Positions 7,913 through 62,526 of a DNA stretch of 64,000 nt are shown piece by piece (position 1 is the stretch's first letter; each line of letters starts with the position of its first letter). The translations under genes were made by a program, and so were the position numbers. The stretch comes from Pelagomonas calceolata. Taxonomy: Eukaryota. The stretch lies in assembly GCA_918797485.1 (NCBI GenBank), contig CAKKNE010000003.1, forward strand, positions 2,294,001-2,358,000. Direction: 5' to 3'. Below the pieces are notes generated by a model, which worked only from the letters and a program-made list of their open reading frames with translations, was not told the origin of the DNA and made no database searches.

Positions 7913-9378
7913 CTATTTCCCCGGCGTGACTTTGGGAATGTCCGGGAAATTCGTCGGCGACTCGCACGACGTCGAGACGACGGAGGCGTCGGAGAGGTCC
8001 CCGCCCGGCGAGGTCTTCAGAGAACTCCGACTGGTGAACGCTTTGCGCCGGGCGACGGTGTTCTCCTCCAATCTGGGCGTATGATCGTACGTAAGCCGCA
8101 GCATCGACATGCAGCCGTCTTTGTCCGGGCCTGTGTGGAAATCAACCGGTGAGTCGCCTGCTCTTCACGAAGTCATTTCTCGGCGACGACGCGGCCGTGC
8201 TGGCTCCGCCGAGCGATGAGGAATCGCCACCGCCACGCTATCGAGCAGGCGTCGCGTCGATGGCGTGGAGGTCGACGCGACGATTCAGCACGAACGCGCC
8301 GTGAAGTTTGATCTAGACACAGGCGCAGACGCATCAGGTCGAACTCCGGGCGGGAGCACATGTCCGTCACCGTCGCGCGGATCGTCGGGTCGACGCGCAA
8401 GAATTGGGACACGAGCTGCTGGAGCTTCGGCGGGAGCGGCCCGTTCGGGCCGCCGAGCTTCACCCGTCCCACCGCAGCGTCCACCGCATCCCTAAAAGCG
8501 TTCGGGTCCTTCAAATCATCATATGGGGGACACCACAAATCGTCGAAGGCCCGGTGGCCGAGGACGCACTCCAGTACCACAGACCCCAGCGACCAGGCGT
8601 CGGCCAAATCTCCCCGGTACGACGCCTCGCAGAACAATTCCGGCGCGAAGAAGCCCGGGCTTCCGACAAAATCGGTCAGCTCGTGGCCTGATGATATGTC
8701 GGCACAGAGCCCAAAGTCGCACAACTTAATAATGCCCGCGTCCGGCAGGCCCTTGCCCCACGTCGCCGGCGAGCCCAGCACGAGCACGTTTTCTGGTTTT
8801 ACATCTCTATGCGCGATGCCCCGCTGGTGGCAGTGTCGCAAGGCCAGCGCCGCGATCCTAGCTATTGCCACGACCACCGGCTCCGGACAACCGCGGGGAT
8901 GGCCATCGAGAAAACTGAAAAGATCGCGTTCCCCGGCCTCGATGAAGCAGTACACATATGAAGACGATTGGACAACTTCGTACAACCGACACACGCCTTC
9001 ATGCCGTAATCGGTTCATCGCCTCGACCTCCAGATTGACCCTCCCAATGTTCCTTTTGGCCTTCAGGATCGACCCGCCGCGCGCGCGCTCGACCTTGGAT
9101 TTTTTAATGGCCTTGCACGCGACCTTCGCGCCCGCGCCCTCGCCCGACTTTCTGATACAGCTATAGACCGTGGCGAACTCCCCTTCTCCTAGTACTCTTG
9201 TAACTTCGTAGGCGCCGATCTGGGCCTTGCCGCCGGGGAGCGCCTTTTCGATCAATTTCGCGTCGAGCTTCGGGAGGTGCCCCGCGGCGGCCCAGGCGCT
9301 CGCGAGCTGGGCCTTGTCGGCGCCGTCGGGCGCTCTTCTTTGACGCGCGCGCCGCTCCGTCGCGTCGCCCTTGGCCAT
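7913..9378 (-). CDS. Ser/Thr protein kinase (CAMK-like); join(complement 8331-9378, 7913-8130)
   Basis: LGEGEFATV, VACK, HRDVKPEN, DFG, GSPGFFAPE, DAWSLG. Removing GT-AG intron 8131-8330 joins ...FDLM-R-PDKDGCMSMLR... in frame (1266 nt). Confidence 0.85.
8131..8322 (-). mobile_element. Introner (TIR MITE) copy 1; intron 8131-8330 in kinase gene
   Basis: Gene-strand ends CTGTGTCTAGATCAAA...GGTTGATTTCCACACAG; degraded 8-bp TSD GTCTGCGC / GCCCGGAC; 3' ~125 nt closely similar to the dynein copy at ~23835-23962. Confidence 0.85.
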
Positions 9379-9880
9379 GGCGCCTCGTTCAAGCCTGGTT
9401 CAAATCCCAGCCCCAATTTCAAGCTTTGTACAGGGCCGCCCGGCAGCCCGCTCCTGGGGCGAGGCGCTTCCCTACGAAGGTGTGGGGTCCCGACGCGGGC
9501 TGCGGCTGCCCGGCGCGCCGGTCTCGGCGCGTGCGCGCTACTGCTACTCCTGCTCGTTTTGCGAGATGGCCCTTGTCACAAATCTACTGTGGACGCCTCC
9601 GTTCCCAGGGTTCCCGGCGACCAGTCCTCCGGACGCGTGCCAGGCGCCACTCGCCCCGAAACGAAAAACGCTAAGTTCCTAGTGTAAGCTGTAAGCTGTA
9701 GTCCAGGCTAGAGCCGTCCTGTGCAGCGCGGCGTAAAAAGTCGAGCAGAAGCAGCCCTTGGTCGGCCGGGAGGCGACCGGGCAGCTGCCGAGAACTGCAC
9801 GACCAAGCCCCAGAACAGCGGGCAGCGAAAACACCGCAGCCGCAGGGGCCCGAGGCTGCCCCAGCACCGCGAGGCCGACC

Positions 9881-61158: not shown

Positions 61159-61533
61159 CGCACGGCTGTCAGCGATGCAGCAGCGGTCAAAGTGTCACTT
61201 GTAGTGATCGATGCAGTCGTTTGCGATTGCTCAATGCAGTCGTGCGCCTTGCGCGGCCTCCAGCTGTGCATGCAATTGCAAAATGCAGAGGGCCAAGGCT
61301 CGTCGGCAAAATCGAGGATCGGTCCGCGCCACCCGTCGCCACGCGTCGTGGGAGTGGTGCTTTTGATACAGAACCGAGACAACGCGGGCCTCAGAATTAA
61401 GAGCCCCGGCTCGCTCCCGCATCCAACGCGGCCTGCTCTCGTCGCAGCGCAGCCCGTAAAACGCACCGCACAGCCCGGTGCGTGCTCCGACGTTGCCTCC
61501 AGGCAGCCCCCGCGCAAAGAACCCGCAACAACC

Positions 61534-62526
61534 ATGGGTGGCGGCGTGTCCATGCCGGCGGTGCCGGTCTCCGCCTCGACGGAGGCCGCCCTCAAGAAGT
61601 TGTATGAAGAGAAGAAGGCCGCGGGCGAGGAGGACGACGCCATCAACGCCGCGCTCGCCGCTGCCACGCCGGCGGTTATTGTGTTTAATCAGATTGACAT
61701 TGACGGCAGCGGCAGCATCGACACCGGGGAATTGAAGCGCCTGCTCAAGGGCCTCCCTAGAAACAAGCCGACGGACGGCTCGCCCTTCGTCCCCTTCGAG
61801 GAGATGGCGTCGACGCTCGGCGGCGACGATGCCCAGATCTCCTTACTAGAGTGGGTGGATAACCTGGCCAAGTTACCTGGTCTGAAGACGGCCATCGAGT
61901 CGAATTTAGATCCGGCTACGGGCAAACTAGCTACTTACTTATCCCTCGAAGCGCGCCTCGAGAAGCTCGCGGCCGACGTCATGATCCTCGAGATGAACGA
62001 GAACCGGACCGACGAGGAGAACGAAAAGCTCGAGTCGAAGCGCAACGACGTGTCGAAGCTGCGGGCGAAGATCGGCTCCGGGTCGATCAGAGTCTTCGAG
62101 CAGATTGATGCTGATAAGAGTGGCAAGATCGAGCGCGCGGACCTGATGAAGATTCTGGGCGAATTACCCGGAACCCAAGAAGGCGAGTACCTGCGTGGAA
62201 ATCAACCAGTGAGTTAGGTTATACGGAGACGACATCGCGTCGATGGCGTGGGGCGCCCGAAATTTGATTTCCACACAGGCGAGGACAACCTCGACGGCCT
62301 CATCAAGGCGCTCGACGTCGACGGCGACGGCATCATCGACATGGACGAGTGGATCGCGCAGCTCGACAAGATCCCGTTGCTCAAGGCACAGCTCGACCAG
62401 TACATCGACCCGGCCACCGGTCTCATCAACACCGAATTGACGGGCCCGATGAAGCCGCCGACGGCCGAGGCGACGATTCCTCCGGCCGACGCGCCCGCTG
62501 AAGAAGCAGCTCCCGCCGCCGAGTAG
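61534..62526 (+). CDS. EF-hand calcium-binding protein with N-myristoylation motif; join(61534-62182,62279-62526)
   Basis: MGGGVS; DIDGSGSIDTGE, DADKSGKIERAD, DVDGDGIIDMDE; internal duplication of the EW..L.K.P.LK....DPATG unit. Confidence 0.85.
62191..62278 (+). mobile_element. Introner copy 6 (88 bp), reverse orientation relative to host gene; GC-AG intron 62183-62278
   Basis: CTGCGTGGAAATCAAC...TTTGATTTCCACACAG; TSD GCGAGTAC / GCGAGGAC (7/8); the element contains an in-frame TAG at 62215. Confidence 0.92.

Follow-up and report, generated by a model that had tools for sequence, protein, structure and literature searches.

Six short repeated elements interrupt reading frames in a 64,000-nucleotide stretch of the genome of the alga Pelagomonas calceolata (NCBI GenBank assembly GCA_918797485.1, contig CAKKNE010000003.1, positions 2,294,001 to 2,358,000 of the forward strand; hereafter the window, whose own numbering is used throughout), and the locus raises the question of whether each element created the intron in which it lies. 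A first-pass annotation of the window, made from the letters alone, had proposed that it did. In the reading that we favor, the elements (E1 to E6) are very probably copies of a non-autonomous DNA transposon with terminal inverted repeats (TIRs), 203 bp at full length, which likely inserted in exons and are likely spliced out. The observations that carry this reading are the TIRs, the 8-bp target site duplications (TSDs), the occurrence of both orientations, the copy number, the GT or GC on the coding strand, the restored reading frames, and the identity of one spliced product with a transcriptome protein.

Anatomy of the six elements

All six elements were located where the first-pass annotation had placed them, with lengths of 192, 424, 84, 96, 178, and 88 bp for E1 to E6 (84-424 bp, as it had stated), and 15-bp TIRs are common to all of them. 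At up to two mismatches the window contains 10 TIR matches, while 100 order-3 Markov simulations averaged 0.05 and never exceeded 1; a scan at three mismatches gave 11 TIR ends, every one of which is part of E1-E6. The left TIR of E5 has a 3-nt deletion, the right TIR of E1 matches at 12 of 15 positions, and the donor-side TIRs of E2 and E3 start with CCG. The internal blocks, which had been described as shared together with the TIRs, are less general: the literal block CGCCATCGACGCGA is present in three of the six copies (E1, E5, and E6).

From E1 to E6, the two TSD copies match at 4, 8, 7, 8, 8, and 7 of 8 positions, which agrees with the earlier count of three perfect, two 7/8, and one degraded duplication, and for E2-E6 the best duplication length is 8. 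On the host strand (minus for E1, E3, and E5, plus for E2, E4, and E6), the first TSD copy (TSD1) starts with GT in E1 to E4 and with GC in E5 and E6, and the acceptor end reads CAG in 6/6 elements, so that both features are found as first noted. Removal of TSD1 together with the element leaves an open frame in all six host frames, while unspliced read-through meets a stop 11-129 codons beyond the junction. The GC content of the window, 62.5%, fits the 63.6% published for P. calceolata (Guerin et al. 2022, PMC9481584).

Hosts and predicted splicing

E1 (8131..8322, minus strand) is a near full-length copy, 192 bp long, of the sequence group described below as subfamily 1. Its TSD1 (8323-8330) starts with GT where the second copy, TSD2 (8123-8130), starts with GC. 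The predicted intron (8330-8131, GT..AG, phase 1) lies in a Ser/Thr kinase gene (protein kinase by Pfam; coding sequence about 9378-7913), and P0151 (98.6% identical), P0153, and P0155 cross the junction peptide as predicted.

E2 (23539..23962, plus strand) consists of 147 bp of subfamily 1 and a low-copy middle part. Its predicted intron (23531-23962, GT..AG, phase 0) interrupts an axonemal dynein heavy chain gene 23 codons upstream of the stop. The Pfam profile Dynein_C is matched at positions 1-294 upstream of the element and 291-308 downstream of it, and dynein C-termini in the PDB are matched by the last exon of 23 aa (best E 0.0011), in agreement with the restored dynein C-terminus that the first-pass annotation gave as an example. 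The middle part (23561-23815, about 250 bp) resembles a dynein intron at 12878 and a metagenomic sequence (L107:5249-5308). E2 may combine two introner types or derive from a longer ancestor.

E3 (24364..24447, minus strand, 84 bp) and E4 (49582..49677, plus strand, 96 bp) are internally deleted subfamily-1 copies. The predicted intron of E4 (49574-49677, GT..AG, phase 0) lies in a 1,200-aa gene, a long open reading frame (ORF) with a weak sulfotransferase match only in Pfam; the distant homologues P0230 and P0231 run on into the spliced downstream frame, a resemblance judged by eye. The predicted intron of E3 (24455-24364, GT..AG, phase 2; host frame about 24958-24090) is indicated by the open frame and a codon score only and is the least tested of the six. 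The 3' part of its host (24090-24290) is highly repeated, with a summed depth about 300x unique at 24222, and the 5' part is unique and barely transcribed; a chimeric gene is one possible explanation for this host and an expanded C-terminal module another, and the gene that carries E3 may be silent or a pseudogene.

E5 (59844..60021, minus strand, 178 bp) belongs to subfamily 2, and its intron (60029-59844, GC..AG, phase 1) lies in a leucine-rich repeat (LRR) gene, so assigned by Pfam (coding sequence 61158-59500). Splicing at the GC donor gives P0187 with 490/490 residues identical, a protein recorded as P. calceolata CAH0371387.1 and as an MMETSP complete transcript ORF. As environmental alleles of this protein are only 86-94% identical to the spliced product, a lineage carrying E5 was likely the source of the MMETSP transcript. 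E6 (62191..62278, plus strand, 88 bp) is an internally deleted subfamily-2 copy whose predicted intron (62183-62278, GC..AG, phase 1) separates two EF hands (EF-hand protein by Pfam; coding sequence 61534-62526). Across its junction, 14 of the 15 listed members of a 79-member cluster read GTQE-GEDN.

Homologues or domains thus argue for splicing at E1, E2, E4, and E6, and a transcriptome protein at E5. In RNA run X21, the read strand agrees with the kinase (minus) and the dynein (plus). Many molecules in this run start at 7817 and 24041, beyond E1 and E2, and these positions are likely transcript 3' ends.

Copies in metagenomes

Marine and other metagenomes were scanned with a 16-nt TIR pattern in 3 of the 64 parts of the collection, which returned 125 loci (~3,800 stretches estimated). 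In the 124 loci analysed we found 95 distinct TIR-paired elements, while 37 loci had no pair; of 40 loci without a new pair, 14 had no similarity to the family, as if the 16-mer had matched by chance. Almost all of the sampled copies are within coding frames. The copies are 54-207 bp long with a mode of 203 bp (20/95). Their TSDs are perfect at 8 bp in 38/95 and at lengths of 4, 6, 7, and 9-12 in none, and at least 7 of 8 positions match in 62/95, compared to 0.5% of shuffled pairs.

The scan pattern forces a G beside one TIR, and unforced positions were therefore tested for the GT/GC bias. A pyrimidine follows the forced G at 100 of 104 sites (background 0.547), and GT or GC stands at one TSD end in 13/13 unforced copies, seven from metagenomes and six from the window (background 0.324). 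The opposite end carries GT or GC in 20/90 (background about 0.18, p 0.27); being near background there, the bias is not palindromic. For a test of strand, coding strands were called by a codon model trained on the window genes, after 9 copies had been dropped for short flanks and 18 for a TSD match below 6/8. Of the 68 copies left, 21 had GT or GC at both ends; among the one-sided cases, the coding strand carried it in 42 of 43 confident and in 2 of 4 unconfident ones. The acceptor AG is present in 68/68 analysed copies, partly forced by the search pattern, and is provided by either end of the element (end A in 36, end B in 30). Unspliced, 60 of 61 copies would add a stop or shift the frame. 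The two TSD copies differ at position 2 in 1/61, versus 3-8/61 at each of positions 3-8, a pattern that is expected if the first two bases of TSD1 are the donor and the remainder is free intron.

Summed contig depth over the element was about 2,200x, 2,300x, and 1,600x unique in DNA runs X1, X3, and X5, a rough figure that is no true copy number; extrapolating the 6 copies in 64 kb to 32.4 Mb leads to a comparable number, about 3,000. The family has the features of miniature inverted-repeat transposable elements (MITEs): short length, TIRs, a TSD of fixed length, high copy number, and no coding capacity. It also has a defining feature of introners, as the similarity reaches the intron boundaries in unrelated genes (six copies in six frames of the window; 95 metagenome copies).

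Several further properties were examined in the same material. All six window copies lie <350 nt from the stop, and a 3'-end bias was rejected after a comparison of 41 metagenome copies with 2,041 matched random GT/GC coding positions, limited by short contigs (12/36, or 0.33, within 350 nt of the stop, versus 0.39). An orientation bias, suggested by end A being the acceptor in 5/6 window copies, was dropped as well (36 vs 30 in metagenomes, p 0.54). The intron phases (28/8/25) are like those of background GT/GC positions in the dynein coding sequence (476/295/483). Carriage by viruses had no support: the TIR 15-mer gave 53 single matches in IMG/VR, with a partner TIR at 0/53, and an internal 22-mer had 0 matches. 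Rfam gave 0 matches in L064, L070, and L080, an exact look-up of 10 read-through ORFs found 0/10, and in the predicted fold of the E6 intron the TIRs pair with each other at a z of -1.36, which is not unusual. At one locus (L116:707-1606), a single reading frame holds three copies in a span of 900 bp; once they are removed, the distances between their sites are about 128 and 329 nt.

Subfamilies and age

By their interiors, the copies fall into three groups with the same TIR and a full length near 203 bp. Subfamily 1 comprises 54/95 metagenome copies and, in the window, E1-E4. Subfamily 2, with 27/95 copies and E5 and E6, is the most decayed (perfect TSD in 3/27). Subfamily 3, with 14/95 copies, has no member in the window; it combines the same TIR and 203 bp with an unrelated interior (loci L055, L058, L061, L071, L078, L080, L098, L102, L114, L127, L131, and L153), and its loci have a median GC content of 72.5%, versus 62-63% for the other subfamilies. 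It likely resides in another host.

A recent burst, as first suggested for the family, does not fit these data. Full-length subfamily-1 copies are 69-96% alike with a median of 88%, fewer than half of the metagenomic TSDs are perfect (38/95), and there are three subfamilies. Read-through proteins indicate that the sites of E1 (P0160, P0218), E4 (P0222, P0224), and E6 (P0004, P0006) are also occupied in other strains, with different internal deletions, and the strains apparently sharing these elements differ in protein by up to about 9%. Several waves within or near the history of the species fit these observations better than a single, very recent burst.

Apparent presence and absence in wild lineages

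The calls of presence and absence that follow come from predicted proteins. Among 29 proteins of the LRR gene, 14 are continuous, nine pass the E5 site and then enter a TIR translation (CVEINQ), one reads into E5, one is a distant relative, and four have no anchor. The CVEINQ entry falls on an 8-mer starting with GT that is empty in the window (59820..59827, minus strand), in LRR exon 2 and 16 nt beyond the E5 site, and it seems that the element inserted there independently in the nine environmental alleles. Two of these nine alleles and one continuous allele are on contigs of 9-10 kb.

In the kinase gene, P0065, P0066, P0216, and P0217 have two other decayed insertions about 50 nt on either side of E1 and are continuous at E1 itself; P0218 has E1 as well as the upstream insertion, and only E1 is present in the window. 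If these are genomic alleles, such combinations need recombination or precise loss. Some short-contig cases could be mimicked by partly spliced transcripts. For the kinase, a 75%-identical relative shows no interruption on contigs that reach 39 kb. The EF-hand gene has continuous ORFs on contigs of 7 and 11 kb in cluster 1, and in a relative the contigs reach 74 kb; the continuous proteins on long contigs are P0176 (39 kb), P0164 (74 kb), P0193 (10 kb), and P0137 (11 kb). At the protein level, empty sites in other strains or orthologues, which the first-pass annotation had predicted, are therefore indicated for E1, E5, and E6 (contigs of 9-74 kb). DNA runs X1, X3, and X5 gave no empty sites: all of them carry E3, and X3 also carries E1.

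Proposed mechanism and alternative explanations

A transposase encoded elsewhere would mobilise the short TIR element in trans and insert it with an 8-bp stagger in either orientation; in the 124 metagenome loci, no transposase copy, that is, no TIR-paired copy above 207 bp, was found. Both TIRs end in CAG, and the downstream end would therefore always offer an acceptor, which is why either orientation works. Where the target 8-mer starts with GT or GC on the sense strand, TSD1 would become the donor and TSD2 would stay in the exon, leaving the mRNA unchanged. Insertion itself need not be specific for GT or GC: selection would keep exonic insertions with a sense-strand GT or GC, while others are likely purged. 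The copies would then decay by internal deletion, with positions 3-8 of TSD1 drifting and positions 1-2 and the acceptor being retained, and the insertions would be young enough to vary between wild lineages. A GT at TIR positions 5-6 could give an in-frame alternative that is 12 nt longer. The core of the transposon route to intron gain that was first put forward, with the 8-bp TSD giving the donor and the TIR the AG acceptor, is supported.

Three other origins were weighed. The GT or GC at the TSD could reflect a target-site preference of the transposase and not selection for splicing: GT is strongly favored over GC (T at 67 and C at 33 of the sites after G, background 0.165 vs 0.382), and the surveyed copies include no intergenic ones. 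Yet the bias is one-ended, with both ends showing it near background (20/90), it is independent of element orientation (36 vs 30), and it is tied to the coding strand (42/43), which together make this explanation improbable. Alternatively, no intron was gained at all, and a MITE inserted later into older introns, or gene conversion homogenised them. The decay of the copies (median 88% identity) and the three nearby dynein introns with weak similarity and no TIRs would fit such a history; however, the acceptor falls exactly on the TIR, and the donor and the start of the next exon exactly on the TSD; uninterrupted proteins are encoded on long contigs (10-74 kb) in relatives and in conspecific alleles; and some alleles that read through other insertions show no break at the E1 or E5 site. 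We consider this history very improbable and already largely refuted. Spread through RNA, the route proposed for introner-like elements of fungi, in which excised introns are reverse-spliced, would account for the location of nearly all sampled copies in coding frames, but it is scarcely credible given both gene-relative orientations (36 vs 30), locus-specific 8-bp TSDs, and paired TIRs; moreover, TSD1, which derives from the host, is part of the intron and would travel with it on re-insertion.

Several observations weigh against transposon insertion followed by splicing, or against its generality. No RNA junction was seen at any element (15 of 285 joints were listed, all among repeat copies, and none were obtained for E4-E6), and the support for presence and absence consists of predicted proteins rather than DNA. 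GT or GC lies on the non-coding strand in one confident (L100) and two unconfident metagenome copies, 5/95 copies lack the GT/GC..AG layout, and no autonomous copy is known from the 124 loci, in which the longest TIR-paired copy has 207 bp. The TSD copies of E1 match at only 4/8 positions; the E3 host frame has no Pfam match, and mean RNA depth over it is 0.28/0.01 at 24536-25100. Finally, the NCBI model of the E6 gene (P0140, CAH0371388.1) uses a GT inside the TIR.

This last point bears on the claim that splicing restores the frame exactly, which stands for the open frames of all six hosts and is contradicted by the NCBI model of the E6 gene, in which 12 extra nucleotides are retained. At some copies, notably E6, splicing might start at the GT of TIR positions 5-6, so that TSD1 and 4 nt of the TIR (12 nt) stay in the mRNA and the element brings a built-in, frame-preserving back-up donor. 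An intron at 62195-62278 reproduces P0140 exactly, adding EYLR (+4 aa), the GT is present in 58/61 oriented copies, and the same +12-nt geometry (8 bp of TSD and 4 bp of element) was described for a family in a pelagophyte metagenome-assembled genome (MAG) (Gozashti et al. 2022). However, P0140 has no transcriptome source, and EYLR is missing from 14 of the 15 listed members of the 79-member cluster, though these are possibly empty alleles. The GC donor of E5 is used in a transcriptome protein, the TSD donor of E6 (AAG/GCGAGT, the slash marking the junction) is near the usual donor consensus, and a general back-up would make the sense-strand GT or GC unneeded, yet 42/43 copies show it. Use of the TIR-internal donor is thus unlikely, and we favor exact removal of TSD1 with the element also at E6.

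TSD1 of E6 (62183-62190) differs from TSD2 at position 6, and the changed base is a closer fit to the donor consensus. As E6 homologues keep the GED of TSD2 and another strain, judged from P0006, seems to have a perfect TSD1, the change sits in the intronic copy. An internal GTGAGT (62209-62214), 18 nt inside the TIR of end A, is a competing, frame-shifting donor in the orientation of E6.

Relation to known introners

The family and its mechanism are already published for P. calceolata, and our finding is a correct rediscovery. Guerin et al. (2022, PMC9481584) describe 956 putative P. calceolata introners with GT/GC donors, an AG acceptor, and a conserved TIR, and an intron length peak near 210 bp that fits 203 + 8 = 211; the likeness is one of description. 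Their Supplementary Note 3 contains no analysis of TSDs or mechanism, unlike the present work. For P. calceolata, the table of Gozashti et al. (2025, PMC12130899) has 11 families with 471 introns. Their fam2, with 340 introns, is a 202-bp TIR element with a 13-bp TIR and GT:281 / GC:42 donors, described as 'co-opt 5' carry 3'' and classed as hAT, and its entry gives no TSD length; fam3 and fam39 are smaller families of 203 bp. Our elements agree with fam2 in species, length, TIR, donors, and mechanism, a match by features and not by sequence, and the TIR words were not found in the supplement files searched (12/14). The 11 families and 471 introns of that table are far below our rough 1,600-3,000 copies, and presence or absence among strains is not among the rows compared. 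A literature search of titles and abstract openings gave no account of P. calceolata introner presence or absence among strains.

In the Aureococcus type (co-opt 5', carry 3'), the donor comes from TSD1 on the sense strand and the acceptor from the TIR, in either orientation, and all of this is seen here (42/43; 36 vs 30). A further trait of that type is insertion into nucleosome linkers. Introner elements with an 8-bp TSD were reportedly found in Aureococcus anophagefferens by Huff, Zilberman and Roy in 2016. Aureococcus is another genus, and its closest kinase is 55-59% identical to the E1 host. Micromonas pusilla IE1 (PMC11282704), a MITE-like introner, likewise has TIRs and takes one splice site from the element and the other from the TSD; with a carried donor, a co-opted AG, and a 3-nt TSD, it is the mirror image of the P. 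calceolata family, in which a 3-nt duplication is perfect in 2/95 copies. Both the co-opted-5' geometry and the +12-nt form were described by Gozashti et al. (2022). In family 4 of their 'Aureococcus sp.' TARA MAG, the 8-bp TSD and 4 bp of the element are retained, as in the annotated E6 model; compared by description, this form is the rule there, whereas exact removal is favored here.

An 8-bp TSD and short TIRs are features of hAT transposons that our elements share. The termini of hAT elements follow the consensus YAGNG/YARNG, while those of our elements read 5'-CTGTG. For membership in hAT, the TSD is thus a fit and the terminal consensus is not.

The best unexplored leads are the segregating independent insertions in wild populations and the choice between two donors. 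A joint reading would combine intron gain segregating today, independent insertions 16-50 nt apart that need recombination or precise loss, a TIR back-up donor adding four residues, and a chromatin- or transposase-set ruler of 203 bp across three interiors and at least two host lineages; we regard this combination as plausible but somewhat short of probable. If it is true, intron gain, loss, and selection could be measured from existing ocean metagenomes, and a population view could matter, P. calceolata being among the most abundant algae of the ocean, sexual-looking, and heavily sequenced. Should the alleles hold in DNA, the species would offer dated, segregating intron gains by the thousand. 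The fitness cost of new introns and the rate of precise loss could then be tested directly, as could the question whether '+4 amino acid' introners exist or are artefacts of annotation at GC donors.

Other introns and genes in the window

The dynein gene needs three further introns for its open frame of 4,510 codons, all on the plus strand and GT..AG: 12878..12978 (101 nt), 13413..13512 (100 nt), and 13926..14057 (132 nt). None of them has a TIR pair, and their TSD-like matches are 2, 4, and 2 of 8, which weakens the suggestion that every resolvable intron of the window derives from the family. The DHC_N2 profile is matched at positions 4-130 and 134-400 on either side of the 13926-14057 intron. 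The 12878 intron is weakly similar to the middle part of E2 (nhmmer E 0.0035) and the 13413 intron to subfamily 1 (nhmmer E 0.086), and the 13413 and 13926 introns are repeated at about 25-30x unique depth. The three introns may belong to other or eroded repeat families.

The other genes of the window were named by Pfam, and most look intronless by codon segmentation. They encode a NACHT/NPHP3_N protein (3-1820, minus strand), a DEAD-box helicase (5555-7702), a MYND-RING protein (25206-27023), tubulin (30751-32190, minus strand), an amidohydrolase (32548-34410), a CS-domain protein (36371-37708), a D-2-hydroxyacid dehydrogenase (41567-42610, minus strand), and a methyltransferase (50010-50879, minus strand). 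Upstream of the dynein start, the stretch at 9802-9844 recruited a second, divergent sequence in DNA and RNA runs and is likely a short repeat or a paralogue.

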